A DNA stretch of 64,000 bases from contig JAOQAE010000002.1 of assembly GCA_025963725.1 (NCBI GenBank), forward strand, positions 1,115,765 through 1,179,764. Direction: 5' to 3'. The first letter of the stretch is position 1, and each line of letters starts with the position of its first letter. This DNA is from Bacteroidota bacterium. Lineage in GTDB: Bacteria; Bacteroidota; Bacteroidia; 2-12-FULL-35-15. Positions 26,983 to 46,853 of the stretch are shown in pieces. The notes beneath the pieces are model-generated. The model made no database searches. It was not told the origin of the DNA and worked only from the letters and a program-made list of their open reading frames with translations. A program made the translations under genes and the position numbers.

Positions 26983-27116
26983 GGTATTTAAACGATGTAT
27001 CAAAATAAAAGCGCCGCTAATCTTTCCGGGGGCTTTTGTTAATTTTTGTTAAGCATACAGGTTCCCGGCAACCAGATATGGAGAACAATAATTCTCTTCT
27101 GTTATCATCAATTTAC

Positions 27117-27124
27117 TATATTTG
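27117..27124 (+). promoter_or_regulatory. Putative -7 box TATATTTG
   Basis: TAnnTTTG match 27 nt upstream of the ATG at 27152. Confidence 0.4.
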
Positions 27125-27151
27125 AATGCTTTTAATCAAACAAATAAAAAC

Positions 27152-28399: not shown

Positions 28400-28422
28400 T
28401 AATTCAACAAATACATAAAACG

Positions 28423-28457
28423 AAAAGCGGGCTGAATTTCAGCCCGCTTTTTTTTAC
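28423..28457. terminator. Bidirectional rho-independent terminator
   Basis: aaaagcgggctgaa-ttt-cagcccgctttt with T-runs on both strands, between the converging 27152 gene and guaB. Confidence 0.85.
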
Positions 28458-28474
28458 ATCCTTACCTGTAATTC

Positions 28475-29941: not shown

Positions 29942-29983
29942 AGAGAACAGGGTTTGAACTTTAATTATTGGCTAAAATTCCCG

Positions 29984-29991
29984 CAAAGATA
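29984..29991 (-). promoter_or_regulatory. Putative -7 box TATCTTTG (minus strand) for guaB
   Basis: TAnnTTTG match about 42 nt upstream of the ATG at 29941. Confidence 0.35.
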
Positions 29992-30062
29992 CATTATTTT
30001 TTGATTGAAAGGCAATTCGGGCACATGCCCTGTTAAGCATAGGCAAAAACTATTATTTTATT

Positions 30063-30070
30063 TACATTTG
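30063..30070 (+). promoter_or_regulatory. Putative -7 box TACATTTG at the head of the nonulosonate cluster
   Basis: TAnnTTTG match 8 nt upstream of the ATG at 30079. Confidence 0.4.
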
Positions 30071-30078
30071 CTTCAATT

Positions 30079-30951
30079 ATGGATCTGAAGAATACATTCG
30101 AGGCACTTGTTCATTTTGTAAAACAATGTTTCAACACGTCTGTTTCACTTGGAAAAATTGTTGTGCGCCTTGGCCATGTCGCTTCATTGCCAAAGGCCGG
30201 TGAATCATCCTGTATTGTTTTAGGCAACGGCCCCTCTTTAAGCCAATCTTTTTCCGACCACCCCGACTTCTTCAAAAAGCATCCGCTGGTGTGTGTGAAC
30301 AGCTTTTCGTTCTCGGAAAAGTATACTGAGCTGAAGCCTTCTTATTATGTAATGCTCGATCCCGGCTTTTGGCTGAATGACGGAGAACTCGTAAGAAGCA
30401 CGATGGAGAGCATTAAGAACAAGACCTCCTGGCCGCTGGAGCTGTTTGCCCCTGTCCAGGCAAAAGGATCCACATTCCTTAAAATGCTGAAGGACGAAAA
30501 CCCGAACATACGTGTGACCTTCTTTAATTATACGGTATTCAGGGGCTTTAAGGGGCTGTCGCATTTGTTTTACAAAAAGAACATGGCCATGCCCCAATGC
30601 CAGAATGTAGTGGCGGCTTCCCTGTTTCTGACAATAAACATGGGATTCAGGAACGTTTACCTGTTTGGCGCAGATCACACCTGGCATCAAAACCTGCATG
30701 TGGACGAAGAGAATACGGTTTGCGTGAAGCAGATCCATTTTTATGAGAACACCGAGAAAATAAACTATGTTCCTTTTTACAAAGGCCTGCATTTAAAAGA
30801 AGTGTTCAGGATGGATGAGCTCTTTATGATCTTCGGAAAGACATTCTACAGCTATATGGCGATAAATGAGTATGCCTTATCGAGAAGCTGCACCATTTAC
30901 AATGCCAGCGCTATTTCCTATATTGATGCATTTAAAAGAATCAGGCTATAA
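30079..30951 (+). CDS. GNGPSL-motif Rossmann-like protein (DUF115/Maf-like or CstII/GT42-like), candidate nonulosonate transferase
   Basis: CIVLGNGPSLSQ ... VCVNSFSFSEKYTELKPSYYVMLDP ... FLTINMGFRNVYLFGADH parallels the AGNGPSL ... CNQFYFEDKYYLGKK ... GYKEIYLSGIDF layout that I recall for Campylobacter CstII and for DUF115 proteins. Confidence 0.45.
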   Translation: MDLKNTFEALVHFVKQCFNTSVSLGKIVVRLGHVASLPKAGESSCIVLGNGPSLSQSFSDHPDFFKKHPLVCVNSFSFSEKYTELKPSYYVMLDPGFWLNDGELVRSTMESIKNKTSWPLELFAPVQAKGSTFLKMLKDENPNIRVTFFNYTVFRGFKGLSHLFYKKNMAMPQCQNVVAASLFLTINMGFRNVYLFGADHTWHQNLHVDEENTVCVKQIHFYENTEKINYVPFYKGLHLKEVFRMDELFMIFGKTFYSYMAINEYALSRSCTIYNASAISYIDAFKRIRL

Positions 30952-30954
30952 GAT

Positions 30955-31635
30955 ATGGGCGCACTACTATCATCTCCCTTTACATACTGGCTGCGGTGGC
31001 TGTTCACAAAGTGGCGGCTCGAGCTGAAATACCGAAAGCAGCATTTACAGCTTGAGTACATGGTTGAAGTTCAAAACTGCAGGTTCGGCAATTATAATAA
31101 GATCTACAAGTACAGCAGGCTGCGCAATTCCGAATTCGGCGATTTCAGTTATGCTGCAAGGAACTGCCAGGTCTACAATACAAAGATCGGCAAGTTCACC
31201 TGTATTGGGCCCAATGTGAATACAGGAATGGGGGCACATCCCTCGGCAGAATTTGTATCGAGCCATCCGCTGTTCTATTCTACGCTGGGACAATCATCGG
31301 GGCTTGTGATTATTGACAGCAACCTGTTTGATGAATTCCCTGAAACACAGATCGGCAATGATGTGTGGATCGGCAATAATGTAACGGTGCGGTACGGCGT
31401 AAAGATCGGGGATGGAGCTATCATAGGCTCGGGAGCAGTTGTAACAAAGGACGTGGAGCCTTACAGCATTGTGGGCGGAGTGCCTGCCAAAACGATCAAA
31501 TACAGGTTCACGCCCGAACAGATCGATTTCCTTCAGCAATTCAAATGGTGGGATAAGGATCTTGACTGGATAAAAGCCAACAAGGACCTTTTCCGGAACA
31601 TCGAAAAATTCATGGCGGAGAACACAAAGGAATAG
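30955..31635 (+). CDS. Left-handed beta-helix (hexapeptide repeat) acetyltransferase, xenobiotic/CatB-like
   Basis: IGNDVWIGNNVTVRYGVKIGDGAIIGSGAVVTKDVEPYSIVGGVPAKTIKYRF. Confidence 0.8.
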   Translation: MGALLSSPFTYWLRWLFTKWRLELKYRKQHLQLEYMVEVQNCRFGNYNKIYKYSRLRNSEFGDFSYAARNCQVYNTKIGKFTCIGPNVNTGMGAHPSAEFVSSHPLFYSTLGQSSGLVIIDSNLFDEFPETQIGNDVWIGNNVTVRYGVKIGDGAIIGSGAVVTKDVEPYSIVGGVPAKTIKYRFTPEQIDFLQQFKWWDKDLDWIKANKDLFRNIEKFMAENTKE

Positions 31636-31691
31636 TAATTCCCGGCCTTACTATCATGCCCTAAAACTTTGGTATTTCGATAAACTCTGCT

Positions 31692-31699
31692 TATTTTTG
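31692..31699 (+). promoter_or_regulatory. Putative internal -7 box TATTTTTG
   Basis: TAnnTTTG match in the 87-bp gap upstream of pseB. Confidence 0.35.
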
Positions 31700-31722
31700 C
31701 CCATATTATAACCCAGAAAAAA

Positions 31723-32739
31723 ATGTTGGATCTAAACGGCAAATCAATCTTAATTACAGGTGGAACAGGCTCACTCGGAAAACATCTTACAAAGAATATC
31801 CTCGCCCAGTTTCCCAGCGTAAAACGTTTGGTTATTTTTTCGCGGGATGAGCAAAAGCAATTTGAGATGGCCCAGGAATACCCGGTATCCAAATATCCGG
31901 CGATCAGGTATTTTATAGGGGATGTTCGCGATTTCGACCGTTTAAAAAAAGCATTCAAGGACATTGAGATCATTATACATGCGGCAGCAATGAAGCATGT
32001 GCCCATTGCAGAGTATAACCCGATGGAATGTGTGAAGACCAATGTGCTCGGGGCTGAAAATGTGATCAATGCAGCATTCGATTGCGGGGTAAAAAAGGTG
32101 GTGGCGCTTTCCACAGATAAGGCTGCCGCGCCGATAAACCTTTATGGAGCCACCAAGCTATGCTCCGACAAGCTGTTTGTTGCCGCCAATAATATCAAAG
32201 GCCACCAGAACATTATTTTTTCAGTGGTGCGCTACGGAAATGTGATGGGCTCGAATGGATCGGTTATTCCTTTTTTCATGAAAAAGAAAAAAGAAGGCGT
32301 TCTCCCGATCACAGACCCGAACATGACCCGCTTTAATATTTCCCTGCAGGGCGGCGTGGATATGGTGCTGCATGCAATCGATACGGCATGGGGCGGAGAA
32401 ATATTCGTTCCGAAGATCCCTTCCTACAAGATCACCGATGTTGCGGAAGCGATAGCTCCCGGATGCAGGCAGGAAATTATCGGGATCCGCCCGGGAGAAA
32501 AGCTTCATGAAGAAATGATCACCTCCTCCGATTCTTTTTCCACTTACGATCTTGGAAAATATTATGCTATTCTGCCGCAGGTGCCTGCTTTTAAAACAGA
32601 GGACTACATCCGTCATTTTAATGCAAAGCCTGTTGCCCAGGGATTCCAGTATAATTCAGGGGAAAATAAAGAATGGGTAAGCGTTGAAGAAATGCGCTCA
32701 CTTATAAAAGAACATGTGAATCCTGATTTTTCCATTTAA
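31723..32739 (+). CDS. pseB: UDP-N-acetylglucosamine 4,6-dehydratase (inverting), PseB/FlaA1
   Basis: ILITGGTGSLGK, SRDEQKQFEM, FIGDVRD, HAAAMKHVPIAEYNPMECVKTN, STDKAAAPINLYGATKLCSDKLF, RYGNVMGSNGSVIPFF and IGIRPGEKLHEEMI closely follow H. pylori FlaA1 as I recall it. Confidence 0.9.
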   Translation: MLDLNGKSILITGGTGSLGKHLTKNILAQFPSVKRLVIFSRDEQKQFEMAQEYPVSKYPAIRYFIGDVRDFDRLKKAFKDIEIIIHAAAMKHVPIAEYNPMECVKTNVLGAENVINAAFDCGVKKVVALSTDKAAAPINLYGATKLCSDKLFVAANNIKGHQNIIFSVVRYGNVMGSNGSVIPFFMKKKKEGVLPITDPNMTRFNISLQGGVDMVLHAIDTAWGGEIFVPKIPSYKITDVAEAIAPGCRQEIIGIRPGEKLHEEMITSSDSFSTYDLGKYYAILPQVPAFKTEDYIRHFNAKPVAQGFQYNSGENKEWVSVEEMRSLIKEHVNPDFSI

Positions 32740-32744
32740 ATCCG

Positions 32745-33935
32745 ATGATGGTGAAAGCAGAAACAACCGAAAAAAAAATAATTCCTTATGGCCGCCAGGC
32801 TATAACAGACGCAGATATTGAGGCTGTGGTTTCCACGCTGCGTTCCGATTATCTTACCCAGGGCCCGGCCATACCGGAATTTGAAAAGAAGTTTGCTGGA
32901 TACGTGGGGGCGGAATATGCGGTTGCCTTATCCAATGGAACCGCGGCGCTGCACTTATGTGCGATGGCGCTGAATGTAAAACCCGGCTCGAGAGTGATCA
33001 CCACTCCCATTACCTTTGCCGCTTCTGCAAATTGCGTAAGGTATTGCGGCGGCGAAGTGCATTTTGCCGATATCGATCCGGATACATTCCTGCTCGATAT
33101 TTCTAAAGTAAAAGCCCTGCTCGAAAAGCATCCTGCAGGATACTTCCAGGGGATCATCCCCGTTGATTTTGCCGGCAATGCCGTTAATCTTGAAGCATTC
33201 CGCAAGCTTGCCGATGAGCACGGGCTCTGGATCATTGAAGATGCCTGCCATGCACCGGGAGGATATTTTACCGACAGCAAACAGGCAAAACAAAAATGCG
33301 GGAACGGCCGCTTTGCAGACCTTGCCATTTTTTCATTTCATCCTGTAAAGCATATTGCAACCGGCGAAGGCGGAATGATCACCACCAATAATAAAGCATT
33401 GTACGAAAAGCTTTTGCTGCTGCGCACCCACGGGATTACCAAAGATCCGTCAATGTATGAGAATTCGGAGGCTGATGTTGCGCAGGGCCCCTGGTATTAT
33501 GAAATGCAGGAGCTGGGATACAATTACCGCTTAACGGATTTCCAGGCGGCCCTGGGAACTTCACAGATGGAACGTGCAGATGAAAACCTGGAGCGAAGAA
33601 AACTGATCGCAAAAAAGTACGACAACACATTTTCAAATACCTCTTTTATAAAGCCATTGCCTGCGGAAGGACATGCCTACCATTTGTATGTGATCCAGGC
33701 TGCCGACAGATTGGGCCTGTATAACCACCTGAGGGCAAATAATATTTTTGCGCAGGTGCATTATGTGCCTGTTCACTTAATGCCTTACTATAAGCAATCC
33801 GGATTTAAAAAAGGTGATTTCCCCCATGCAGAATCGTATTACGACAAATGCCTCAGCATCCCAATGTACCACTCATTGCAGGAAGCCGACCAGCAACGTG
33901 TAATAGATACGATCCTGGATTTCGAAAAACATTGA
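32745..33935 (+). CDS. pseC: UDP-4-amino-4,6-dideoxy-N-acetyl-beta-L-altrosamine transaminase, PseC (DegT/DnrJ family)
   Basis: IPYGRQAITDADIEAV...YLTQGP N-terminus and the SFHPVKHIATGEGG PLP-lysine motif. It is adjacent to pseB. Confidence 0.85.
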   Translation: MMVKAETTEKKIIPYGRQAITDADIEAVVSTLRSDYLTQGPAIPEFEKKFAGYVGAEYAVALSNGTAALHLCAMALNVKPGSRVITTPITFAASANCVRYCGGEVHFADIDPDTFLLDISKVKALLEKHPAGYFQGIIPVDFAGNAVNLEAFRKLADEHGLWIIEDACHAPGGYFTDSKQAKQKCGNGRFADLAIFSFHPVKHIATGEGGMITTNNKALYEKLLLLRTHGITKDPSMYENSEADVAQGPWYYEMQELGYNYRLTDFQAALGTSQMERADENLERRKLIAKKYDNTFSNTSFIKPLPAEGHAYHLYVIQAADRLGLYNHLRANNIFAQVHYVPVHLMPYYKQSGFKKGDFPHAESYYDKCLSIPMYHSLQEADQQRVIDTILDFEKH

Positions 33936-33966
33936 AACGCAGTAATAAACTTTTTAATTTACCCAC

Positions 33967-34809
33967 ATGAACTTTAATTTCAAACCTGATAAGGAAGCCT
34001 TTGAAAAGGATGGTTACCTCCTGATCAAAAATGTGTTCTCAAAAGAGGAGATCGAACAGATCAGAAAGGATGCCTATACATCATTTGAGGAAGATAAAAA
34101 GAAGAACCTTACGTTCAGGCATGCGTCTAAAATGTCGAATGCCGTGTATGCAAAGGGCGATATCCTGAGCAAAGATCACCTGAGACATGTTCTTTTAGAT
34201 GAGCGGATCCTTTATCTTGTAAAAACCCTCTTGGGAAATAACCCTGTATACTGGGGCGATAGTAATTATCACTTTGGCACCGGCTTCCGCGGCTTTCACC
34301 GCGATAATATTGACCGTACCGATATGACCGCGCCCGATTGGGACGGCGATTACCCGATCGTACGGCTGGCGATCTATTTACAGGACCATAAAAACTATAG
34401 CGGCGGCTTAAAGGTTCGCGTTGGCTCTCATAAGAACCCCAGCGGAAAACCGGTGTTTATCGATAGCGAGGAAGGCGATGTTGCCATCTGGAATTTAAGG
34501 ACCATGCACAGCGGCAATGCCGTAAGACTTAAATTCTTTAAAAACCTTTCGATCAATAAAGCACGCAGGGAAGGCTGGATCCCGGCCTTTATGAAGAAAG
34601 ACCAGCAAAGGGAACGTGCAACCTTATTTATGACCTTCGGGCTTAAATCAAAACATCTCGACAGATACATTGAAAAGCACATGCTCGGAAGGGAAGATGT
34701 CCTGGGCTATCTGAAAGCTTCACGCTTTGACCCTAAGGTATTGGACCTTGCAAAGGAAAAAAATCTTGAGGTGCTTAAGCTTATTCCCGAATACGGATCA
34801 TTAGAATAA
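33967..34809 (+). CDS. Phytanoyl-CoA dioxygenase (PhyH) family Fe(II)/2-oxoglutarate dioxygenase
   Basis: FEKDGYLLIKNVFSKEEIEQIRKD N-terminus, a GFHRDN HxD motif, and a distal TMHSG His. Confidence 0.7.
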   Translation: MNFNFKPDKEAFEKDGYLLIKNVFSKEEIEQIRKDAYTSFEEDKKKNLTFRHASKMSNAVYAKGDILSKDHLRHVLLDERILYLVKTLLGNNPVYWGDSNYHFGTGFRGFHRDNIDRTDMTAPDWDGDYPIVRLAIYLQDHKNYSGGLKVRVGSHKNPSGKPVFIDSEEGDVAIWNLRTMHSGNAVRLKFFKNLSINKARREGWIPAFMKKDQQRERATLFMTFGLKSKHLDRYIEKHMLGREDVLGYLKASRFDPKVLDLAKEKNLEVLKLIPEYGSLE

Positions 34810-34813
34810 AGAG

Positions 34814-35515
34814 ATGGAATTAAACATTGGCAACCGCCAGCTATTTGCTGATATTGAAACGGAACGGACAAAAAAAATGGCCAGCCTCTGCTCGGACTCA
34901 TCCTTCGCAGAGAAGGATCTCCTGGCCGTTCTTGATACGTACAAAAGGCGGGAACCCGAAATAGAAAAAGCGCTGGCGTATGCTAAAACACTTGACTTTT
35001 CAAAAAACCATCTCCGCTCAAGCTATTTAAGCCACCCGATCCGGCTGGCAACTTTCCTTGTAATGATCGATCCGCAGATCGGCACCGACTATATTGTTAT
35101 TGCGCTGCTACACAATGTTCCCGAAACAACAAGCATAACCGCCGAAACGTTAACGGAACTGTTCGGGCCAACCGTTGGGTCGGGAATTAAGGCGCTTGTG
35201 GTGGACAGGAAAGCTGTATTCGCGGAGATCAGGAACGAATATTACAGGAATATTTTTGCAAAAGGCACTTCACTTGTGCTTGTTAAGCTGATCGACAAGA
35301 TCGACAACCTTTTTGTACTTGGCCTGAATGCTGATGATGCCGTGCGGAAGGAATACATTATGGAAATACGGGAAGAGCTTCTTCCCTTTGCCCGTGAATA
35401 CGATCAGCAGCTGGGCAGCTACCTTGAGCGCCTTTTAGAAGATACGGCAGCGCGCGGCTACTCAAAGGAGCTTAAAGACCAGCTGAACCAATACCAGGAA
35501 TCTATAAAACCATGA
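34814..35515 (+). CDS. SpoT/RelA-type HD-domain homolog with substituted catalytic residues (HN and ET in place of HD and ED)
   Basis: SHPIRLATFL...IALLHNVPETT...LFGPTVGSGIKAL...LVLVKLIDKIDNL parallels HPL.VA..L...AALLHDVVEDT...FG..V..LV...IKLADRLHN. Confidence 0.6.
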   Translation: MELNIGNRQLFADIETERTKKMASLCSDSSFAEKDLLAVLDTYKRREPEIEKALAYAKTLDFSKNHLRSSYLSHPIRLATFLVMIDPQIGTDYIVIALLHNVPETTSITAETLTELFGPTVGSGIKALVVDRKAVFAEIRNEYYRNIFAKGTSLVLVKLIDKIDNLFVLGLNADDAVRKEYIMEIREELLPFAREYDQQLGSYLERLLEDTAARGYSKELKDQLNQYQESIKP

Positions 35516-36294
35516 TGAACAAAAGAATTGCATTGATCGGGGGATCGAGCGCCGGAATAGGCAGAGCTATCGCGAACGGACTTCTTGAAAAAGGATTGAA
35601 TGTGATCATCACGGGGCGAAGCGCGAGGCTTGAAAGCACAAAGCTTGAATTACAGGCCAAATTCCCTTCCTCATCGGTGTATGCATTTGCCACTGATTAT
35701 TCTTCATCAGAAGACATCAGCCGGCTGATCGCATCCATTGAAGCAGCCGGGCTTTTCCCCGACGTGCTTGTATTGAATTCGGGAGGCCCGAGGCCAGGCA
35801 CCTTTGACGACATTTCCATTGAAGACTGGGATGCGGCATTCCAGCAGCAATTTAAAAGCTCCATCATGCTGATGAAAGCATTTTTACCCGGCATGAAAAA
35901 AAAGCAATGGGGAAGGATCATTAACATCAGCTCATCCATTGCCATCGAGCCTACACCGGGAATGATCCTTTCGGCAAGCTACAGGGCCATGCTGGTGAAT
36001 GCGCTGAAATCCACTTCATTGCTGGTGGCTAAAGACGGCATCACTATTAACACCTTATGCCCGGGCGCTGTTATGACCGACCGCTTAACCAGCTTGTTTC
36101 AGCAGCAGGCCGACACTGCAGGCAAGTCGCTCGAGGAAATTATAAAAAATGTTGCCGCCACTATTCCTGCACAGCGCATCGCTTCGCCCGAGGATTTTGC
36201 ACACATGGCTGTTTTTCTCGCCGCTGAGGAAGCCAATTATATAACAGGAACGGTGATCCCGGTGGATGGCGGGCTTGTTAAAAAGAGCTTCTAA
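35512..36294 (+). CDS. Short-chain dehydrogenase/reductase family protein (atypical active-site spacing)
   Basis: IALIGGSSAGIGRAI Rossmann motif and ...INTLCPGAVMTD. The expected YxxxK reads YRAML, so Lys is not at +4. ATGA overlap with the upstream gene. Confidence 0.7.
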   Translation: MMNKRIALIGGSSAGIGRAIANGLLEKGLNVIITGRSARLESTKLELQAKFPSSSVYAFATDYSSSEDISRLIASIEAAGLFPDVLVLNSGGPRPGTFDDISIEDWDAAFQQQFKSSIMLMKAFLPGMKKKQWGRIINISSSIAIEPTPGMILSASYRAMLVNALKSTSLLVAKDGITINTLCPGAVMTDRLTSLFQQQADTAGKSLEEIIKNVAATIPAQRIASPEDFAHMAVFLAAEEANYITGTVIPVDGGLVKKSF

Positions 36295-36303
36295 AAGGAC
36301 CAG

Positions 36304-37320: not shown

Positions 37321-37327
37321 TTTTATC

Positions 37328-39594: not shown

Positions 39595-39624
39595 TGCGCT
39601 TATCTCTTTCTGCCAAAGTATTCT

Positions 39625-39632
39625 TACATTTG
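39625..39632 (+). promoter_or_regulatory. Putative internal -7 box TACATTTG
   Basis: TAnnTTTG match in the 64-bp gap upstream of pseI. Confidence 0.35.
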
Positions 39633-39658
39633 CATTTCACGTGCTTCAATAGCTAAAA

Positions 39659-40693
39659 ATGAGAAAAACAATTGATACCAATTTTTTCCGGATAGGTGCT
39701 GAACAGCCATGTTATGTGATCGCTGAAATTGGCAGCAATCATAACGGGAATTTTGATATGGCCTGTGAAATGATCGAAAAGGCGGCGGCGGCGGGAGTAA
39801 ATGCCGTTAAATTCCAGACCTTTAAGGCAAAGGAGCATTATTCAAAAAAAACCCCGAAGATCGGTTTATACAAGGAAGGCATTTATGAGCTGATCGAGAA
39901 GCTGGAGATCGACCGTACCTGGCATTCGAAGCTTGCCGCTGTATGCTCCCGCTCAAAGATCGATTTTTTAGACTCTCCCTGTGATCATGAAGCAATAAAC
40001 ATAGCTGTTTCGGTAGGCATGCCGCTTATTAAGATCGCATCTTATGACATGGTGGATGTAAGGCTCGTAAGTGAGATCGCGCGTACAGGAAAGAGCGTTA
40101 TGTTCTCAACGGGAATGTCGACCACCGCTGAAATAGAAGCCGCGGTAAATATCTGCAGGTCCAACAACAACGATAACATAATTATCCTGCAGTGCACATC
40201 CCTGTACCCTGCCCCTGCCCATCTCAGCAACCTGAAAGCGATGCACACCATCGCCAATATGTTCAATGTGATCACAGGATATTCCGACCATACCCTGGGC
40301 GATCATATTCCCTGCGCAGCTGTTGCCATGGGTGCCAAAGTAATTGAAAAGCATTACACGCTCGGCAGGGGGCTTCCCGGCCCCGATCATAATTTTGCCA
40401 TAGAGCCGGAGGAGCTGAAAATAATGATGGAACGGATCCGCGACATTGAAAGCGCGATCGGCGATGGGATCAAGAATGGCCCGCGTGCTGAAGAAATGGA
40501 GCTTTTTACAAAAGCCAGGAGAAGCATTATCGCAAAAAATAAAATAAGCAAAGGGCAGGTCATTGCCGAGGGCGATATAGTGATCAAACGGCCAGGCATG
40601 GGAATTCATCCTTCACAGATCGCTCTTGTAGTAGGAAAAAAAGCGTTGCAGGATATTGATGAGGACGAGCCTATAACATGGGAAATGATATGA
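39659..40693 (+). CDS. pseI: Pseudaminic acid synthase / NeuB-family nonulosonate synthase
   Basis: CYVIAEIGSNHNGNFDMACEMIEKAAAAGVNAVKFQTF, GYSDHTLG, and a C-terminal SAF domain (IAKNKISKGQVIAEGDIVIKRPG). Confidence 0.85.
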   Translation: MRKTIDTNFFRIGAEQPCYVIAEIGSNHNGNFDMACEMIEKAAAAGVNAVKFQTFKAKEHYSKKTPKIGLYKEGIYELIEKLEIDRTWHSKLAAVCSRSKIDFLDSPCDHEAINIAVSVGMPLIKIASYDMVDVRLVSEIARTGKSVMFSTGMSTTAEIEAAVNICRSNNNDNIIILQCTSLYPAPAHLSNLKAMHTIANMFNVITGYSDHTLGDHIPCAAVAMGAKVIEKHYTLGRGLPGPDHNFAIEPEELKIMMERIRDIESAIGDGIKNGPRAEEMELFTKARRSIIAKNKISKGQVIAEGDIVIKRPGMGIHPSQIALVVGKKALQDIDEDEPITWEMI

Positions 40694-41637
40694 GCAGGAA
40701 AAGAATATTGCTGTCAGGACTTGGTGGTTCCCTGTTCCCATACCTTCACAATAAGCTGAAGGAAACCTACGATGTTTATTATGTTGATGCAGACGCTTCA
40801 CTGAAGGAGCTTTACCCGGGCTATAATTTTTTCCCTGCCCCGCTCGTTACCGATCCGTCCTATCCATCTTTTATAAAAGAGCTCGTGGCAACTTATTCTA
40901 TTGAGCTATATGCCCCGCTGATAGATGAAGAGATCGAAATTGCCCATGACATTAAAGATCAGATCCCCTCGCTGAACCTCTTATCTCCCAAAAGAGATTT
41001 CTGCCGCCTGGCGATGCGAAAAGACCTGCTGATGAAAGCGCTCGAAGAGCACCGGATCTCCAGCATTGCCACCTGGACCGGCGATGAGTTCACATGGAAG
41101 GATGGTATTTACTTTGTGAAGCCGATCTCCGGCAGGGGAAGCCGGGGCATCAGAAGAATAACTTCGGAAGATGAGCTGAAGGCCTATTACCTGCTGGAAA
41201 ATTATGATCCGGCCGAGATCCTTGTACAGGAATGCATAGAAGGCCAGGAATACACCGTGGGCGTGCTTATCAACCAAACAGATGATATTATTCTTTTAAG
41301 CTCAAGAAAGATCCTGAAAAAGAAAGGCATTACCATAAAGGCGGTCACAGAACAAAATCCGGCCATAAGTGAAGCGATCCGGAAGATCAATCAGTGCTTA
41401 ACACCCAAAGGCCCGATCAATGTGCAGCTCTACATTACAAATGCCGGCGAGGTAAAGATCTTTGAAATAAATCCCCGGTTTTCCACCACTACCATTATGA
41501 GCTATGAAGCCGGGATCGATGAGATCGGGTTATGGCTTCAGCATCATGATACCCCGTATCAGGATAGCGCCATTTCCCCGGAAGATGGCCTTATACTTCA
41601 CAGAAGATGGGAAAATTTATTTTATGAGCAACGGTAA
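40690..41637 (+). CDS. ATP-grasp domain ligase
   Basis: YFVKPISGRGSRGI, LVQECIEGQEYTV and FEINPRFS motifs. Start placed at the ATGA overlap with the pseI stop. The alternative upstream ATG at 40678 is the one used in the ORF track. Confidence 0.75.
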   Translation: MSRKRILLSGLGGSLFPYLHNKLKETYDVYYVDADASLKELYPGYNFFPAPLVTDPSYPSFIKELVATYSIELYAPLIDEEIEIAHDIKDQIPSLNLLSPKRDFCRLAMRKDLLMKALEEHRISSIATWTGDEFTWKDGIYFVKPISGRGSRGIRRITSEDELKAYYLLENYDPAEILVQECIEGQEYTVGVLINQTDDIILLSSRKILKKKGITIKAVTEQNPAISEAIRKINQCLTPKGPINVQLYITNAGEVKIFEINPRFSTTTIMSYEAGIDEIGLWLQHHDTPYQDSAISPEDGLILHRRWENLFYEQR

Positions 41638-42508
41638 AAAAAACATATTGCTGGTTGGCGGCGCAGGTTACCTGGGCTCACATCTAAAAGAGCTCCTTTC
41701 TTTATACAATGTATTTTATACTTCGCGAACAAAAAAGCCAGGCGCGATCGAGCTCGACCTTTTGAAAAAGGAAACTTTTGATAACATTGCATCTGTTCCT
41801 TATGACCTGATCATCCTTCTTGCCTCATCCCTGAAAGGCCTTGGCACTTCTGAGCTGGATGCAGCATATCTCGATACCGATACTACAGGCCTCTCCGGCT
41901 TTCTGCAATTTATTTCCGTGAATAAGCTAAGCAGTAAGCTTATTTATGTTTCATCTATGACGGTGTATGGAAAGAAGGATCGCCTGCCTGTTAAGGAAGA
42001 CGCTGTTCCTGAACCGATCAGCACTTATGGATTAAGTAAAGTATTAGGTGAAACCATCTTTGGGTTTTACTGCAATTCAGGTGCTGCAAGGGGCGTAATT
42101 TTAAGGATCCCGGGAATCTATGGAGGACAAAGGAAGTCGGGCTTTATTTACAACACAGCAATGAAATGCGCCGGAAATGAGCCCCTGGAGATGGATACAT
42201 CCGGCCTCGGCTATTGGGAAACAATTCACATCCATGATCTTTCCACCTGGATCAGCGAATTCATACGCAATTATACCTGGGAAGAAAATATAAACACTTT
42301 TAATATCGGCTACGGGATCAAAACCGATTTTATTGAATGTGCAGGACTGATCAGGACAATGCTCGAGTCCTCCTCCGAAATACAGGTAAGGGGAGCAAAA
42401 GGGTATACCGACTTTTATCTCGATAATTCAAAAATAAAAAAATACGCTTCAGTTACAGACAACTATCAGGCATCGCTGAAAAATTATTTAAAGGGGTTTA
42501 GATCATGA
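41624..42508 (+). CDS. NAD-dependent epimerase/dehydratase family protein
   Basis: ORF 41504-42508 trimmed to the ATG at 41624, giving MSNGKKNILLVGGAGYLGSHL. YGLSKVLGE matches YxxxK. Confidence 0.75.
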   Translation: MSNGKKNILLVGGAGYLGSHLKELLSLYNVFYTSRTKKPGAIELDLLKKETFDNIASVPYDLIILLASSLKGLGTSELDAAYLDTDTTGLSGFLQFISVNKLSSKLIYVSSMTVYGKKDRLPVKEDAVPEPISTYGLSKVLGETIFGFYCNSGAARGVILRIPGIYGGQRKSGFIYNTAMKCAGNEPLEMDTSGLGYWETIHIHDLSTWISEFIRNYTWEENINTFNIGYGIKTDFIECAGLIRTMLESSSEIQVRGAKGYTDFYLDNSKIKKYASVTDNYQASLKNYLKGFRS

Positions 42509-43239
42509 ACTTTGTGATCGGTGATATACACGGGGAATTCACTAAGCTCAAAAAGCTTATAGAAAATATCCTTGCGCTCGAGAAAGACCCTACGCTTATC
42601 TTCATCGGAGATTACACCAATAAAGGAGAAGACCCTTACCAGACATTAAAGCTGCTGGCCGCGCTTCAGCAAGAAAAAGAATGTATTTTTTTAAGAGGGA
42701 ACCATGAGTATTTCTGGGAAGCGCTCACAAGCGATTCGGGAAAAGATGCGGAAGCATTAATGAAGTACGGGGCACAGAATACCATCTCGTCGATAGGCGG
42801 CAATCCGGGCCTTTGCGAAGCGAAAGAGCTGCTCTATTCGGAGTTTCCCGCTCTCTTAACGAACCTTCGCAGCTATTACCTTTCCGACAATTATGTAATC
42901 ACCCACAGCGGGATCCCACCTTCCGAATATGAAAATGAGCTTGATAAAATACCTGCTGATAAGTTCCTGTTCAACCGCTATGATTTCATAAGCCTTCAGA
43001 AGCTGTACCTGAACAGGAAAATTATTTTCGGGCACACCGGCTTTTACTCCCCTTTTTATGATGGATACAAGATCGGGATAGATACCGCAGCCTGTTACCT
43101 CGAAGACCAGCCGCTGACCTCATTTTGTACAAGTGACGACTTTTTCCTAAATTCCGCTAACCGTATTACGCGGTTATCCGAGATCGATCAATCCTTTTGT
43201 CCGGCAATACCCAGGGTTAAAGCCTGGAGGCAAAAATAA
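42505..43239 (+). CDS. Calcineurin-like metallophosphoesterase (PPP / ApaH-PrpE-like)
   Basis: FVIGDIHGEF, FIGDYTNKGED, LRGNHE and GHTG motifs. ATGA overlap with the upstream gene. Confidence 0.8.
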   Translation: MNFVIGDIHGEFTKLKKLIENILALEKDPTLIFIGDYTNKGEDPYQTLKLLAALQQEKECIFLRGNHEYFWEALTSDSGKDAEALMKYGAQNTISSIGGNPGLCEAKELLYSEFPALLTNLRSYYLSDNYVITHSGIPPSEYENELDKIPADKFLFNRYDFISLQKLYLNRKIIFGHTGFYSPFYDGYKIGIDTAACYLEDQPLTSFCTSDDFFLNSANRITRLSEIDQSFCPAIPRVKAWRQK

Positions 43240-43251
43240 AAACACAAAAAA

Positions 43252-43962
43252 ATGATAGAATTCCTGAAGAACAAAAGAATTATGGTAGTAGTTGCACATC
43301 CCGATGATGAGCTGCTTGGGCTGGGTGCCACTATTCATAAGCTGGTGCATGAGCACGGTGTAAAAACCCACCTTGTGATCCTTGGAGAGGGAATAACATC
43401 CCGCTCCGACCAGCGTGATGTTGAAGCCTGGAAAAAAGAGCTGGAGACCCACAAAAAAAACATTCATGCGGCAAAAGACAGCATCGGCTATCACACCGTA
43501 AGCATCCACGACTTTCCTGATAACAGGTTTGACAGCGTGGCCCTCCTCGATATCGTAAAGGTGATCGAAAAAGAAAAAGCTGCCTTTATGCCTGACGTGA
43601 TCTTTACACATCACGGAGGCGACCTCAATATCGATCATCAGCGTACCTTCGAAGCTGTTGTAACAGCAATAAGGCCGATGGAGCACGAGAAGGTATCGAC
43701 GCTGATCACCTTTGAAACACCATCGGGCACCGAATGGCGGGCCTCCACCGATCCACGGCACTTCATCCCCAACCTTTTCTTTGAAGTATCGGAAGACGAT
43801 CTCAATGCAAAGATCAGGGGAATGGAATTCTATGAATTCGAAAAAAGAAAATATCCGCATCCGCGTTCCCCTGAAGCGTTAAGGATCCAATGCCAGCGAT
43901 GGGGCGTGGCTGTCGGCAGGCAATATGCCGAAGCGTTCCACCTGGTAAGGCAGATCTGCTAA
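43252..43962 (+). CDS. PIG-L / LmbE family de-N-acetylase
   Basis: IMVVVAHPDDELLGLGATI zinc-binding motif, followed by HHGGDLNIDH. Confidence 0.8.
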   Translation: MIEFLKNKRIMVVVAHPDDELLGLGATIHKLVHEHGVKTHLVILGEGITSRSDQRDVEAWKKELETHKKNIHAAKDSIGYHTVSIHDFPDNRFDSVALLDIVKVIEKEKAAFMPDVIFTHHGGDLNIDHQRTFEAVVTAIRPMEHEKVSTLITFETPSGTEWRASTDPRHFIPNLFFEVSEDDLNAKIRGMEFYEFEKRKYPHPRSPEALRIQCQRWGVAVGRQYAEAFHLVRQIC

Positions 43963-43982
43963 GCCGGAATAAATAAAAATAG

Positions 43983-43990
43983 TATATTTG
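43983..43990 (+). promoter_or_regulatory. Putative -7 box TATATTTG
   Basis: TAnnTTTG match 29 nt upstream of the ATG at 44020. Confidence 0.4.
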
Positions 43991-44019
43991 AATTAACTAA
44001 TCCACTAAAACAATCACGT

Positions 44020-45234
44020 ATGAACATCACCCGCTCCATTTTGCTGCCTTTTTGCTTTTTATTATTATTCATCCCTGGCTTCCGGGCTCAAACATGGACC
44101 TCGCTCACAAGCGGCACGAGCGCAAGCCTTATCGGTGTTTGTGCGATAAGCAAGGATACTGTTTACGTTGGAGGAGCCAACGGCAAGATCATGAAAACAA
44201 CCAATGGCGGAGTAACCTGGGTCACGCAGACTACGCCAACGGCACAAACCCTGTACGGAATGGATTTTATAAACGGGAATGTGGGATTTGCAGCCGGGGA
44301 TAATGGAGCGATAATTAAAACCAGCAACGGAGGAGCTACGTGGACCAGCGTTTCCGTTACATCCAGCTCCCTTCGTTCAGTGAGGTTCATCAGCAGCACA
44401 ACGGGATTCATTACCGGTGATGGCGGCCTCATCCTGAAAACCACCAATGGCGGTACCACCTGGAGTGTTTGCTCTACTGGAATTTCCGATCCTATTTATG
44501 CTGTTTGGTTTATAGACCCAACCAACGGCTATGCCTCCTCCTTCAGCGGGGATCTTTTAAAAACAACTAATGGTGGCAGTACCTGGACAGCAAGCGCTAC
44601 GGGGGTATCGTCACAGATGAACACTATTTATTTTACCGATCCCAGCACCGGTACTTTTGTTGGCGCCGGCGGTGTGATCAGAAGAACAACAGATGGAGGC
44701 GTGTCGTGGGCGACCGTTACAATGACTCCCTCAGGCGATTTTCTTCATTCGCACACCTTTGTTAATTCCACTACCGGCTTTATTACCGGGGGAAACATCG
44801 GATCGAATATTGGTGTTATTTTAAATACTGTTGATGGCGGCTTAACATGGTCCACTTACCATCCGGGAACTGCACGGTTATGCAATGTCGATTTTGTAAA
44901 TGCAAATACCGGTTATGCAGTAGGATTGAACGGAACTATTCTGAAGTATACTTCCCCTATTGGGATTTCAGAACAGTCAGCTACGGCAAAAACACTTGAT
45001 GTTTTCCCTAACCCTGCGAAGAGCAGCTTTACGATCAGCACCACCGGGCTTGAGCTGGAGGGAACTGTTTACTTCGAACTTTTTGATGTTGCGGGCAACC
45101 TTGTAAAGAAAGAAGAGCTTGTAAACATTTCAAACCTTACTATTGAAAGAGGCAGCCTGGATGCCGGGATCTATTTTTTCACGTTAAGCACTAACGGGAA
45201 AGTGGCAGGAACAGGCAAAATAATATTTGAATAA
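44020..45234 (+). CDS. BNR/Ycf48-like beta-propeller with a type-A T9SS C-terminal domain (paralog of 27152-28399), embedded in the nonulosonate cluster
   Basis: Repeated TTNGG(V/A/T/S)TW blades. The C-terminal part ...VILNTVDGGLTWSTYHPGTARLCNVDFVNANTGYAVGLNGTILKY is nearly colinear with the 27152 protein. CTD: FPNPAKSSFTI...GIYFFTL...GKIIFE. Confidence 0.8.
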   Translation: MNITRSILLPFCFLLLFIPGFRAQTWTSLTSGTSASLIGVCAISKDTVYVGGANGKIMKTTNGGVTWVTQTTPTAQTLYGMDFINGNVGFAAGDNGAIIKTSNGGATWTSVSVTSSSLRSVRFISSTTGFITGDGGLILKTTNGGTTWSVCSTGISDPIYAVWFIDPTNGYASSFSGDLLKTTNGGSTWTASATGVSSQMNTIYFTDPSTGTFVGAGGVIRRTTDGGVSWATVTMTPSGDFLHSHTFVNSTTGFITGGNIGSNIGVILNTVDGGLTWSTYHPGTARLCNVDFVNANTGYAVGLNGTILKYTSPIGISEQSATAKTLDVFPNPAKSSFTISTTGLELEGTVYFELFDVAGNLVKKEELVNISNLTIERGSLDAGIYFFTLSTNGKVAGTGKIIFE

Positions 45235-45253
45235 AAAGCCGTAAAGCTTTTGA

Positions 45254-45298
45254 ATGCTAAAAGGCCGGAGTTCTCACTTTGGCCTTTTAGCATTTTTT
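45254..45298 (+). terminator. Rho-independent terminator
   Basis: tgctaaaaggcc-ggagttctcacttt-ggccttttagca stem followed by tttttt. Confidence 0.75.
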
Positions 45299-45357
45299 AT
45301 GAGCTGTTTAAACTTATAATTTGAATATCTTTAGCCCAGCAAATATCTTTTGCCACA

Positions 45358-46839
45358 ATGGGGATCATAGAAAAACAAGCTACTAAAAATGCCATTTACT
45401 CTTACCTGGGGGCTGCACTGGGATTTATTACCGTGATGTGGCTCTCGCATCTGCTAAGCACGGCAGAGAATGGTGTTGTCCGCATTCTTATCTCCTATAC
45501 CGCACTGATGGCCCAATTTGCCAACCTCGGCTTTGTAGCGGTTACCATCCGCTTTTTCCCGTATTTCAGGAACAAGGACAAAGGGCATCACGGATTTTTA
45601 TTTTATGCGGTCATCATTTCGCTTATCGGCTTTCTTTTATGCTGGATAATATTCTTCTTTCTTAAGCCGTACCTGATCAGCTCCAATGAAGCCAAGTCCC
45701 CTCTTTTTGTAACGTACCTGTTTTACCTGATGCCCTTAACTTTTTTTACGGTCTTCTTCAATATATTCGACAGCTACCTGCGGGCCTGCTACAGCTCCGT
45801 AGCAGGATCTCTTACAAAAGAATTTCTCCAGCGCATATTGATCCTGCTGGTGCTCTGCCTTTATTTTTTCGGGCTGATCAACTTCCCGGCTTTTATGTTC
45901 TTATACATACTTTTCACATGCCTTCCCACGCTTATGCTTCTTTTTTATATCGTAAAACAGGGGGAATGGCATATAAGGCCTGTACGTGGGTTTATGAGCA
46001 AAAGCCTGAGGAAGGAAATGATAAAGCTGAGCCTCTACTCTATTTTAACAGGCGGCGCCGGAGCTATTGTATTGAATATAGACGCTGTGATGGTTACCCA
46101 GATGCTTGGTGAAAAAAAGACAGGGATCTATGGTATTGCTTTTTACTTTGGCGCTATCCTTTTAATACCGGCCCGCTCCATTTACCGCATCACCTCCAGT
46201 ATTGTTGCCGAGCATTTCAAGGTTTCCCGCTTCGGCGAGATCCACAAGCTTTACAAGCAAAGCTGTAACAGCCAGCTTGCGATCGGCATGCTGCTTTATA
46301 TTGGCATCTGGTCGAATATTGATAACATCATGCAGCTGCTGCCGCCTGAGTACGGGCCGGGAAAAAATGTGATCCTCATCCTGGGCGCGGGTTATCTTGT
46401 GGAGATGGCAACAGGGATTAACCAGGTGATCATCTCCAATTCCACTTATTATAAATACGATACCTATTTCGTTTTTATTCTCGTAGGCATTATCGTTCTT
46501 ATGAACTATATATTTATTCCGATATATGGGATCATTGGCTCTGCCATAGCCACCGCTATTACAGTAACAATTGGAAATTTCATGAGGTATCTGCTGCTCT
46601 ATATAAAATATCAGATGCAGCCCTACAACATGAATACATTGAAAATACTATTCGTTGGTATTGTCTCACTTCTGCCCGGCCTTTTCATTCCCTATCTTCA
46701 CAACCTTTACCTCGACATAGCTGTACGAAGCAGCATTGTGGGCGGAATATTCATCCTGCTGACCTTAAAGCTGGAGGCCGCACCTGAGCTGAACCAAAAG
46801 ATCAGGAAAAACTTAAGGCGCTTTTCTATTGAAATTTAA
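45358..46839 (+). CDS. Wzx-like oligosaccharide flippase (polysaccharide biosynthesis protein, MOP superfamily)
   Basis: 493 aa, hydrophobic throughout (about 12-14 TM segments), with an N-terminus typical of Wzx. It sits in a glycan cluster. Confidence 0.7.
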   Translation: MGIIEKQATKNAIYSYLGAALGFITVMWLSHLLSTAENGVVRILISYTALMAQFANLGFVAVTIRFFPYFRNKDKGHHGFLFYAVIISLIGFLLCWIIFFFLKPYLISSNEAKSPLFVTYLFYLMPLTFFTVFFNIFDSYLRACYSSVAGSLTKEFLQRILILLVLCLYFFGLINFPAFMFLYILFTCLPTLMLLFYIVKQGEWHIRPVRGFMSKSLRKEMIKLSLYSILTGGAGAIVLNIDAVMVTQMLGEKKTGIYGIAFYFGAILLIPARSIYRITSSIVAEHFKVSRFGEIHKLYKQSCNSQLAIGMLLYIGIWSNIDNIMQLLPPEYGPGKNVILILGAGYLVEMATGINQVIISNSTYYKYDTYFVFILVGIIVLMNYIFIPIYGIIGSAIATAITVTIGNFMRYLLLYIKYQMQPYNMNTLKILFVGIVSLLPGLFIPYLHNLYLDIAVRSSIVGGIFILLTLKLEAAPELNQKIRKNLRRFSIEI

Positions 46840-46853
46840 AGAAACGGGAGAAA

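Follow-up and report, generated by a model that had tools for sequence, protein, structure and literature searches.

A probable nonulosonate-decorating variant of a hypervariable surface-glycan island in environmental Bacteroidota

Seventeen tightly packed open reading frames (ORFs), all on the + strand, span positions 30079–46839 of the 64-kb stretch of Bacteroidota DNA analyzed here (contig JAOQAE010000002.1; hereafter the window), as an earlier reading made from the letters alone (the sequence-only reading) had described. In our assessment, this region is probably one version of a surface-glycan island that is hypervariable among environmental Bacteroidota and that would make, decorate, and display a 5,7-diamino-tetradeoxy nonulosonic acid (NulO) activated with cytidine monophosphate (CMP), either of the pseudaminic acid (Pse) type or a close stereoisomer of it. 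That the locus is a NulO cluster had been proposed before, and the equivalog-level scores of PseB, PseC, and PseG support early steps of the Pse type. Profile searches of every ORF against Pfam and NCBIfam upheld nearly all of the earlier domain calls (Table 1). The product may be hydroxylated, phosphorylated, or N-acyl exchanged.

On this reading, PseB, PseC, and PseG would turn uridine diphosphate N-acetylglucosamine (UDP-GlcNAc) into a free derivative of 2,4-diamino-2,4,6-trideoxy-L-altrose, the 4-amine of which would be N-acylated by the GNAT half of the PseG fusion protein. A NeuB-family synthase from a separate clade would condense the hexose with phosphoenolpyruvate, and the lone CTP_transf_3 enzyme would make the CMP-sugar. 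The PIG-L enzyme would strip an N-acetyl group and the ATP-grasp ligase would install another acyl group, a re-acylation for which sister loci would use either a formyltransferase or a set consisting of acyl carrier protein (ACP), AMP-ligase, and acyltransferase. Hydroxylation of the sugar or of an acyl group would fall to the PhyH enzyme, and O-acetylation to the left-handed beta-helix (LbH) enzyme. The Maf-like enzyme encoded at 30079 would transfer the CMP-sugar to an acceptor, with Wzx acting as flippase and a YfhO-type enzyme acting outside the cytoplasm. With low confidence, we suggest that an HD-like protein, a short-chain dehydrogenase/reductase (SDR), and a kinase (the trio) would act as one unit on the NulO or its immediate precursor, in that a hydroxyl would be phosphorylated and the phosphate then removed or eliminated. 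With similarly low confidence, the PPP-family phosphoesterase would dephosphorylate an intermediate, after the synthase and the epimerase.

Core enzymes and the divergent synthase

Three island proteins pass NCBIfam equivalog cut-offs, namely PseB, PseC, and the PseG half of the 38119 protein, as do PseB, PseC, and PseG of the related locus L007 and PseB of locus L003. The T-x9-Y-x3-K motif of PseB is present in the sequence. In the 38119 fusion, the PseG match covers residues 6–282 and the GNAT domain residues 342–472. The GNAT half scores 54 bits against Acetyltransf_3 and matches the PseH model TIGR03585 weakly (30.5 bits versus a cut-off of 93), which leaves the PseH function previously assigned to this protein weakly supported. 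The 37328 protein, which is the only cytidylyltransferase in the island, had no match to the PseF equivalog TIGR03584 at E ≤ 1e-3, and among solved structures it comes closest to an unnamed cytidylyltransferase (PDB 6oew).

The synthase encoded at 39659, which we call NeuB* together with its orthologs, falls below the cut-offs of both relevant models (NeuB_NnaB 359, cut-off 400; PseI TIGR03586 281, cut-off 340). On the same two models, the respective scores are 286 and 508 for Campylobacter jejuni PseI, 311 and 475 for the synthase of locus L001 (a canonical PseI), 392 and 227 for Neisseria meningitidis NeuB, 496 and 278 for the synthase of the canonical legionaminic acid (Leg) cluster in locus L008, and 302 and 258 for Bacillus subtilis SpsE. 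In a neighbor-joining tree (200 bootstraps), the window enzyme and its orthologs form a clade of their own, which joins the pair of C. jejuni PseI and the L001 enzyme in 6 of 200 bootstraps, whereas that pair itself holds in 199. The grouping of NeuB* with SpsE, to which it is 38 per cent identical, is unsupported (48 of 200). The tree gives NeuB* no supported placement among SpsE, the Leg-context enzyme, and the Leptospira enzyme, where Leg is represented by the synthase of a canonical Leg-context locus rather than by a characterized LegI. The window synthase is 41–42 per cent identical to the canonical Leg-cluster synthase versus 33–37 per cent to PseI enzymes, and its best PDB match is SpsE (1vli). 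A published phylogeny of NulO synthases gave no clade for the 39659 enzyme.

Judged by profile scores and tree position, the 39659 enzyme is a NeuB-family synthase and not a member of the PseI family. The sequence-only reading had suggested placing this protein on a phylogeny and had named the Neu5Ac and legionaminic clades as the positions that would speak against it; the position outside the PseI clade goes part of the way in that direction. Its further claim that all canonical CMP-Pse functions are recognizable stands for PseB, PseC, and PseG and fails for the synthase and for the 37328 protein, which lacks a PseF match. This outcome lowers the case for a canonical Pse pathway, but not the case for a pathway that starts in a Pse-like manner.

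The comparison with the CMP-Pse pathway of C. jejuni and Helicobacter pylori (PseB, C, H, G, I, and F) leads to the same picture. The island shares the PseB, PseC, and PseG equivalogs, and its GNAT domain, NeuB-family synthase, and cytidylyltransferase fill the other three steps. It differs in that the synthase is not PseI, the cytidylyltransferase does not match TIGR03584, PseG and GNAT are fused, and nine further enzymes are interleaved. Another point of reference is the sps spore-crust pathway of B. subtilis (SpsM, C, D, G, E, and F), which is reported to give legionaminic acid (PMC7439481). With sps, the island shares the SpsE-like synthase match and the combination of a PseG-like hydrolase with a CTP_transf_3 enzyme, and its synthase and cytidylyltransferase appear to resemble SpsE and SpsF more than PseI and PseF. 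The sps dehydratase, however, is of the retaining kind with a Met-type triad, whereas the island has a PseB equivalog with a Tyr-type triad.

These similarities raise the question of whether the product instead belongs to the legionaminic type or has yet another configuration, such as that of an epimer formed by the extra GalE-like enzyme, which we regard as possible but not probable. Such a product would be in keeping with the NeuB_NnaB score of the synthase exceeding its PseI score, with the near absence of bootstraps that join it to PseI, with its greater identity to the Leg-cluster enzyme, and with a best PDB match that comes from a Leg pathway in which PseG-like and SpsF-like enzymes also act; furthermore, NeuB* always travels with a gene of the epimerase family. 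However, PseB of the inverting type, with the Tyr triad, passes its cut-off together with PseC and PseG in the window as well as in L007, and the PseB of L003 likewise exceeds its cut-off. NeuB* also stands alongside PseB- and PseC-type homologs (detected by tblastn only) in the distant locus L020, and L001 carries the same accessory genes with a canonical PseI. Finally, the tree, which lacks a characterized LegI, gives NeuB* no supported position. We retain a Pse-type sugar or a close stereoisomer as the preferred product.

Conservation and cassette exchange

The same genes occur in the same order in five other loci from metagenomes or metagenome-assembled genomes (MAGs): L002/L004, L003, L007, L014, and JGI 3300050046. 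In L002/L004, L003, and L007 (the closer L014 lies above these ranges), identity to the window is highest for the synthase (80–82 per cent), PhyH (78–82 per cent), and PseB (66–86 per cent), followed by the cytidylyltransferase (73–76 per cent), SDR (72–76 per cent), ATP-grasp ligase (68–71 per cent), HD-like protein (58–61 per cent), PPP enzyme (57–59 per cent), and epimerase (56–59 per cent), and lowest for the kinase (43–45 per cent). Positions 1–6866 of L014 correspond to window positions 34814–42000, with identities of 98 per cent for the synthase, 97 per cent for the cytidylyltransferase, 84 per cent for PseG-GNAT, 77 per cent for the kinase, and 74 per cent for the epimerase. The fast divergence of the kinase and the uneven identities in L014 suggest recombination or diversifying selection on particular steps.

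Two further loci, L009 and L010, are syntenic with window positions 18372–33877 in the flanking genes for MoxR, SurA, PpiC, a BNR propeller with a type IX secretion system (T9SS) signal, and IMPDH (78–81 per cent nucleotide identity), and carry other tailoring genes. In L009, a methyltransferase and an unknown protein replace PhyH and the trio, and a formyltransferase adjoins PIG-L; in L010, an MBOAT protein, an unknown protein, and a methyltransferase are found at the PhyH/trio position. Locus L001 shares with the window the genes for the MptE-like protein, PseB, the trio, the cytidylyltransferase, PIG-L, and Wzx, and is without the PseG-GNAT fusion, the NeuB* synthase, the ATP-grasp ligase, the epimerase, and the PPP enzyme, in place of which it has separate PseG and GNAT proteins, an ACP, an AMP-ligase, an SDR, an acyltransferase, and a canonical PseI. 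Because related genomes carry other tailoring cassettes at the same chromosomal site, we regard the region as a hypervariable glycan island; from these gene neighborhoods, it holds a fixed site next to IMPDH and is exchanged in cassettes like an O-antigen locus. The sequence-only reading had described one unusually large tailoring set. The set is indeed large and linked, with gene order kept in the five loci and a core cassette kept across deep divergence, but it is made up of separable cassettes, which related genomes exchange.

That the accessory genes were juxtaposed by chance beside a standard Pse operon is hardly credible, since both gene content and gene order recur in five other loci. 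Apart from the modular, swap-prone character of the island, nothing favors this explanation, and linkage of the trio to NulO genes was seen in 18 of ~22 loci, down to a kinase identity of 22 per cent.

One regularity concerns re-acylation. PIG-L is retained while its neighbor varies among the ATP-grasp ligase, a formyltransferase, and the acyl-carrier set; such a pattern would be expected if PIG-L freed an amine for a variable re-acylating enzyme. A precedent is the Leg cluster of Candidatus Kuenenia, in which a deacetylase is combined with a formyltransferase and the deacetylated, formylated sugar was detected at the CMP-sugar stage (bioRxiv 10.64898/2026.04.20.719630). PIG-L and a formyltransferase are paired in exactly this way in the sister locus L009, whereas the partner in the window, the ATP-grasp ligase, implies that the amine would be linked as an amide to a carboxylic or amino acid and not formylated. 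A structure search with the ATP-grasp protein matched only an uncharacterized structure.

The HD-like, SDR, and kinase trio

The 34814 protein has the fold and family of RelA, SpoT, and Mesh1 and departs from them in lacking both the HD dyad and the ED catalytic motif. The HN variant, which had been called correctly from the sequence, is genuine: the signatures HN..E[TVSK] and DK.DN are invariant in 15 of 15 orthologs aligned, at identities down to 29 per cent. The SDR was likewise rightly described as atypical, as it keeps the NAD(P) glycine motif and lacks the canonical Tyr-x3-Lys (Tyr to Ser and Lys to Arg relative to Escherichia coli FabG); the signature LS..xR is found in 18 of 18 orthologs, some of them only 35–49 per cent identical. 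Because these odd residues are invariant at such depth, they are defining subfamily features rather than signs of decay. The third member has the motifs H.D.HP.N and DFE, both invariant in all kinases aligned, and its AlphaFold2 model (predicted local distance difference test [pLDDT] 92) has a bilobal APH-type fold. The fold matches of the kinase are homoserine kinase II, YtaA/CotS, AmiN, NahK, and APH(9), which place it among small-molecule APH-fold kinases with no substrate singled out. Sequence searches of the PDB with the kinase and the MptE-like protein returned nothing useful.

Close relatives are few. For the kinase and for the HD-like protein, an index of 5.8 billion proteins yields only 18–26 detectable relatives each, the named ones all being from Bacteroidota MAGs or metagenomes, and the kinase was found in only 3 of 185,579 species genomes. 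At E ≤ 1e-3, the kinase profile retrieved 783 cluster representatives from 1.84 billion proteins; 441 of them remained at a threshold of 1e-10 and 73 at one of 1e-30. None of ten sampled family members matched an NCBIfam model above its curated cut-off. In the open-access literature, searches that combined ATP-grasp, deacetylase, kinase, or HD domain with pseudaminic or nonulosonic yielded no description of the trio or of the gene set, in agreement with the earlier judgment that the combination resembles no described pathway.

The trio genes are always adjacent and stand beside either of two cytidylyltransferase subfamilies. In L006, they follow a PseF/NeuA-like cytidylyltransferase in a locus with PseC and an acetamidino-forming amidotransferase set, and the Leg-like locus L024, where the nucleotidyltransferase is of the PtmE type and the synthase is a different one, carries the trio as well. 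A metagenome scan located distant loci in which a kinase of only 22–25 per cent identity still adjoins an SDR of 35–49 per cent identity; in most of these, it also adjoins an HD-like gene (29–32 per cent identical), and the unit continues to lie among NulO genes. One distant locus (L020) encodes, in order, PseB, PseC, an aldo-keto reductase, a cytidylyltransferase, a class-III aminotransferase, the HD-like protein, the SDR, the kinase, and PhyH, followed by PIG-L, PseG fused to a formyltransferase-like domain, the ATP-grasp ligase, the synthase (53 per cent identical), the epimerase, and a phosphatase. NulO genes were seen in 18 of ~22 non-redundant kinase-bearing loci, the other four being contigs of ≤6 kb. 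In both close and distant lineages, PhyH directly adjoins the trio, and in two distant kinase relatives on short contigs the SDR-kinase pairing persists. Taken together, these gene neighborhoods indicate that the trio is an ancient unit tied to Pse- and Leg-type clusters, the chemistry of which we infer.

Several local variations were observed around the trio. Just upstream of the HD-like gene of L001, where the position is otherwise taken by a methyltransferase, there is a 45-residue PhyH remnant (8321–8455; 53 per cent identity), which is a decayed copy from cassette turnover. On the short contig L012 (2–3508), a 26 per cent identical relative of the kinase is preceded by a Ser/Arg-type SDR (40 per cent) and followed by an ATP-binding cassette (ABC) exporter. 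Distant loci, as seen in L020 (5570–8548) and L017 (1349–2260), have an aldo-keto reductase and a class-III aminotransferase as insertions next to the trio, and in L017 the aldo-keto reductase occupies the position expected for the HD-like gene.

Tentatively, we propose that the trio, usually with PhyH, is a previously unrecognized, widespread NulO-modifying cassette that gives a further-deoxygenated NulO or a stable phospho-NulO, an outcome that we consider rather unlikely. In the deoxygenation variant, the kinase would phosphorylate a sugar hydroxyl and so activate it as an ester, the phosphate would be removed non-hydrolytically by the SpoT-fold protein, which has lost its water-activating Asp, and the NADPH-binding SDR would reduce the product. 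We know of neither a further-deoxygenated NulO nor a stable phospho-NulO from bacteria. Removal of a hydroxyl after activation by phosphorylation occurs in the dideoxygenation of gentamicin, with GenP, and with the 4-hydroxyacyl-CoA kinases LvaA and ACAD10-11. By analogy only, the trio likewise pairs an APH-fold kinase with a reductase-type partner, together with a hydrolase-fold partner that lacks the water-activating Asp; it differs in having no pyridoxal phosphate-dependent or acyl-CoA dehydrogenase partner.

The trio could also be regulatory, with the HD-like protein and the SDR as non-catalytic binders of nucleotide and NADP that regulate flux together with the kinase and the PPP phosphatase. 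Canonical catalytic residues are lost from both proteins despite strong conservation (the SDR, at 72–76 per cent, is among the best conserved in the island), the kinase fold is shared with the protein-kinase-like enzymes YihE and CotS, and PPP enzymes are typically protein phosphatases. We nevertheless hold this to be distinctly unlikely. The substituted residues do not vary even among very divergent orthologs, a constancy that suggests altered catalysis, and translational coupling links the trio to biosynthetic genes. In addition, sister loci put decorating enzymes (a methyltransferase and MBOAT) at its position, the top fold matches of the kinase are small-molecule kinases, and many loci with the trio have no PPP enzyme.

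A different catalytic role is suggested by Streptococcus pneumoniae, in which cytidine diphosphate (CDP)-2-glycerol is made by a reductase/kinase/cytidylyltransferase route. The constant position of the trio next to a cytidylyltransferase gene, and its makeup of a reductase-like protein and an APH-like kinase, fit this scheme, in which the kinase, SDR, HD-like protein, and cytidylyltransferase would together yield a small alcohol phosphate in CDP-activated form, to be attached to the glycan as a phosphodiester decoration. We consider such a role very improbable, as there is one cytidylyltransferase per locus, which is needed for the CMP-NulO, and the trio-adjacent cytidylyltransferases belong to two NulO-type subfamilies. 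Moreover, the SDR is without the catalytic Tyr and Lys, and domain searches of the island revealed no phosphotransferase of the LicD or TagF type.

A phosphatase slot after the synthase

The NeuB* clade always travels with a short GalE-like gene followed by a phosphatase gene. The phosphatase is a PPP enzyme in the window, L002, L003, L007, and the JGI contig, and an Inositol_P-family enzyme in L019, L020, and L021. Because non-homologous enzymes hold the same position, a dephosphorylation step probably belongs to the pathway. In the PPP protein, the motifs GDIHGE, GDYTNKG, and GNHE are present and conserved, and the match to lambda phosphatase (1g5b) is full length. This phosphatase slot, together with a kinase with intact catalytic motifs, points to a phosphorylated intermediate.

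The animal sialic-acid and Bacteroides 2-keto-3-deoxynononic acid (KDN) routes run through a kinase, a phospho-sugar synthase, and a phosphatase, and the island resembles them in encoding a kinase and a phosphatase around its divergent NeuB-family synthase. It differs from them in two respects: the island kinase has an APH fold rather than being of the ROK/GNE kind, and a 6-deoxy hexose lacks the usual site of 6-O-phosphorylation. The animal-like scheme cannot be transferred to the island in a simple way, because the hexose is 6-deoxy and because the trio is also found in loci that lack this phosphatase. A kinase/synthase/phosphatase route has also been proposed for a Leptospira synthase-phosphatase fusion (PMC3438082).

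Transfer and surface display

The first gene of the island (30079) encodes a protein that scores 29 bits against Pfam MptE-like (PF01973; gathering cut-off 34.6), a domain that most of its homologs carry in precomputed annotation. The motif GNGPSL is present, and its residues G49, G51, P52, and S53 are invariant in 36 homologs. An AlphaFold model built from these homologs (pLDDT 93) has as its top Foldseek match the Maf glycosyltransferase 5mu5 (E 1e-5, probability 1.00, template modeling [TM] score 0.49, 269 columns). Later matches are the archaeal MptE kinase and the human sialyltransferases 5bo8 and 6apl, one of which was solved with CMP. From the model, the protein is a putative CMP-NulO transferase with a Maf/sialyltransferase-like fold. 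It is much shorter than Maf (290 versus >600 amino acids) and lacks the flanking domains; the source organism offers no flagellin context, and the gene is instead paired with those for Wzx and YfhO, a pairing that suggests a lipid-linked or extracytoplasmic route. The family has >230 members, every source-named one of which is from Bacteroidota, and domain searches detected no other glycosyltransferase in the island.

The MptE-like and LbH genes are adjacent in the window, L002, L003, L009, L010, and L011 and look like a functional pair. In L011 (10001–11559), this pair stands without nearby NulO synthesis genes, with Wzx, GT2, and methyltransferase genes upstream. The canonical Leg cluster of L008 (LegB 507, LegC 533, and synthase 496) is adjoined by genes for an MptE-like protein, a Wzx of the same type, and YfhO. 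Orthologs of Wzx close loci L001, L002, and L003, and YfhO homologs flank the island in the window, L002, L003, JGI 3300050046, and the Leg-type L008. We propose that MptE-like, Wzx, and YfhO proteins would form a recurrent display set. The earlier suggestion that the product is destined for a surface glycan remains plausible, given the Maf-like transferase, Wzx, and the nearby YfhO.

The nearest organismal analog is the locus of Tannerella forsythia, another member of the Bacteroidota, whose protein O-glycan ends in Pse5Am7Gra and for which the enzymes that modify the N-acyl groups are, according to reviews, unidentified (PMC5420450; PMC6388019). The Tannerella locus also includes Wzx and displays decorated Pse or Leg on the surface. 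It differs from the window in having a TagB-like transferase with a DXD motif rather than an MptE/Maf-like one and many glycosyltransferases for a decasaccharide, and no HD-SDR-kinase trio has been reported from it. Membership of the 30079 protein in the Tannerella Pse transferase family was considered and rejected, as the Tannerella enzyme is described as TagB-like.

Two BNR/T9SS propellers of the window (27122–28399 and 44020–45234, both on the + strand) are paralogs with 43 per cent identity. The former lies in the conserved flank, as in L009 and L010, and the latter inside the island, as in L003. These proteins could be targets of glycosylation, or cargo with no link to the island.

Points that weigh against a Pse-type decorated product

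Several findings count against the interpretation that we prefer. By sequence, the synthase is not a PseI, and its nearest solved relative, SpsE, acts in a reported Leg pathway; the extra epimerase could in addition change the stereochemistry. Because of this kinship and of the epimerase, the final sugar may not deserve the label Pse-type. A pseC gene was not seen within ±8–10 kb of the kinase in three trio-bearing loci (L001, L002, and L003), in which pseB is present; either it lies elsewhere in these genomes or they put the 4-keto intermediate to a different use. Some trio loci (L001, L006, and L024) have no PPP or IMPase phosphatase, so that the kinase and the phosphatase need not share an intermediate, and a 6-deoxy hexose offers few hydroxyls to a kinase. 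Because the canonical catalytic residues are absent from them, the HD-like protein and the SDR may catalyze neither hydrolysis nor redox chemistry. Pfam scores place the MptE-like assignment below threshold and the YfhO assignment marginally above it. Finally, whereas gene content, family membership or non-membership, conservation, cassette exchange, signature residues, and fold similarity are observed directly, we infer the configuration of the sugar, its acceptor, the phosphorylated intermediate, every substrate, and the order of steps after PseG.

Gene organization of the island

Packing of the 17 ORFs takes several forms. ATGA overlaps occur at three junctions (HD-like to SDR, cytidylyltransferase to PseG-GNAT, and epimerase to PPP enzyme), and the other close junctions comprise overlaps of 14 and 16 nucleotides (nt) and seven gaps of 3–12 nt. 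There are five internal gaps of at least 31 nt (87, 31, 64, 57, and 123 nt) rather than the two that the sequence-only reading had counted. It had also placed a TAnnTTTG box, a candidate promoter element that resembles the −7 element of Bacteroidota, in each of those two. Such boxes are enriched in the non-coding DNA of the island (four in 499 nt versus 0.22–0.32 expected, P ~1e-4), and they are found in three of the five gaps and just upstream of the first gene. Across the whole window, there is no enrichment (51 observed versus 44 expected), and scans of positions 29900–47100 for sigma-70 promoters and intrinsic terminators gave counts at the level of shuffled sequence. The epimerase ORF as listed starts at 41504 and overlaps the ATP-grasp gene by 134 nt. 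The true start is most likely the ATG at 41624, because the resulting product of 294 amino acids fits the 293–295 amino acids of its orthologs.

The GC content of the island (~0.44–0.47) is slightly lower than that of its flanks (~0.50). Downstream, the gene for a 1193-amino-acid PKD/CHU_C protein is convergent with wzx and overlaps the upstream YfhO gene by 8 nt. Just past the YfhO gene, a 2-oxoglutarate/Fe(II) oxygenase and a canonical SDR are encoded at 53136–54841 (+).

Table 1. Features of the island and its downstream flank (window coordinates).
Feature	Position	Strand	Basis
TAnnTTTG box (Bacteroidota −7-like, candidate promoter)	30063–30070	+	
TAnnTTTG box (candidate promoter)	31692–31699		
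TAnnTTTG box (candidate promoter)	39625–39632		
TAnnTTTG box (candidate promoter)	43983–43990		
MptE/DUF115-like putative CMP-nonulosonate transferase	30079–30951	+	Sub-threshold Pfam MptE-like; Maf/sialyltransferase-like fold model
LbH acyltransferase, Vat/CatB xenobiotic acetyltransferase type, probable O-acetyltransferase	30955–31635	+	Profile match
PseB, inverting UDP-GlcNAc 4,6-dehydratase	31723–32739	+	TIGR03589, 510 bits versus cut-off 408
PseC aminotransferase	32745–33935	+	TIGR03588, 477 bits versus cut-off 423
PhyH-family Fe(II)/2-oxoglutarate hydroxylase	33967–34809	+	Pfam PhyH; HxD...H kept; nearest solved relative EctD
SpoT/Mesh1-fold protein, HN for HD, E-T for E-D	34814–35515	+	Pfam HD_4; best PDB match Mesh1 3nqw
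Classical-fold SDR, NAD(P) motif intact, catalytic Tyr to Ser, Lys to Arg	35512–36294	+	Pfam; comparison with E. coli FabG
APH-fold small-molecule kinase	36304–37320	+	Pfam APH; HxDxHPxN and DFE motifs
CTP_transf_3 cytidylyltransferase, presumed CMP-nonulosonate synthetase	37328–38122	+	Pfam, 85 bits
PseG (UDP-sugar hydrolase) fused to GNAT acyltransferase	38119–39594	+	TIGR03590, 193 bits versus cut-off 154
NeuB-family nonulosonate synthase NeuB* (NeuB and SAF domains)	39659–40693	+	Separate non-PseI clade
ATP-grasp ligase	40678–41637	+	Profile match; kept in type-1 loci and distant L020
GalE-like extended SDR (epimerase/reductase), start revised	41624–42508	+	Profile match; catalytic motifs kept
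PPP-family metallophosphoesterase (lambda-phosphatase/ApaH-like)	42505–43239	+	All PPP motifs present
PIG-L/LmbE-family de-N-acetylase	43252–43962	+	Pfam PIG-L, 74 bits; AHPDDE and HxDH conserved
BNR/Ycf48-like beta-propeller with T9SS C-terminal sorting domain	44020–45234	+	Profile match; same position in L003
Wzx-type flippase	45358–46839	+	Pfam Polysacc_synt, 31.6 bits versus gathering cut-off 28.2
PKD-repeat protein with CHU_C T9SS signal, membership of the system uncertain	46854–50435	−	Profile match
YfhO-like large membrane protein, probably associated; GT-C-type extracytoplasmic glycosyltransferase family	50428–52977	−	Pfam YfhO, 30.4 bits versus gathering cut-off 28.5

Implications

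NulOs cap bacterial surfaces and flagella and shape recognition by phages, immune systems, and other microbes. The island represents a conserved candidate set for the decoration of such sugars, with a deacetylase that is combined with interchangeable acyl cassettes, a hydroxylase, and a trio with non-canonical active sites. The short Maf-like transferase, together with Wzx and YfhO, offers a lead on how Bacteroidota may attach sugars outside the cytoplasm; in the O-glycosylation of this phylum, the ligase and the oligosaccharyltransferase are still undiscovered (PMC12871550). Solving the chemistry of the trio would annotate the neighborhood of the 441 unnamed cluster representatives of the kinase family and could reveal a new class of sugar. 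As judged from its gene neighborhoods, the trio recurs in the NulO clusters of many uncultured bacteria, and its chemistry may be new.

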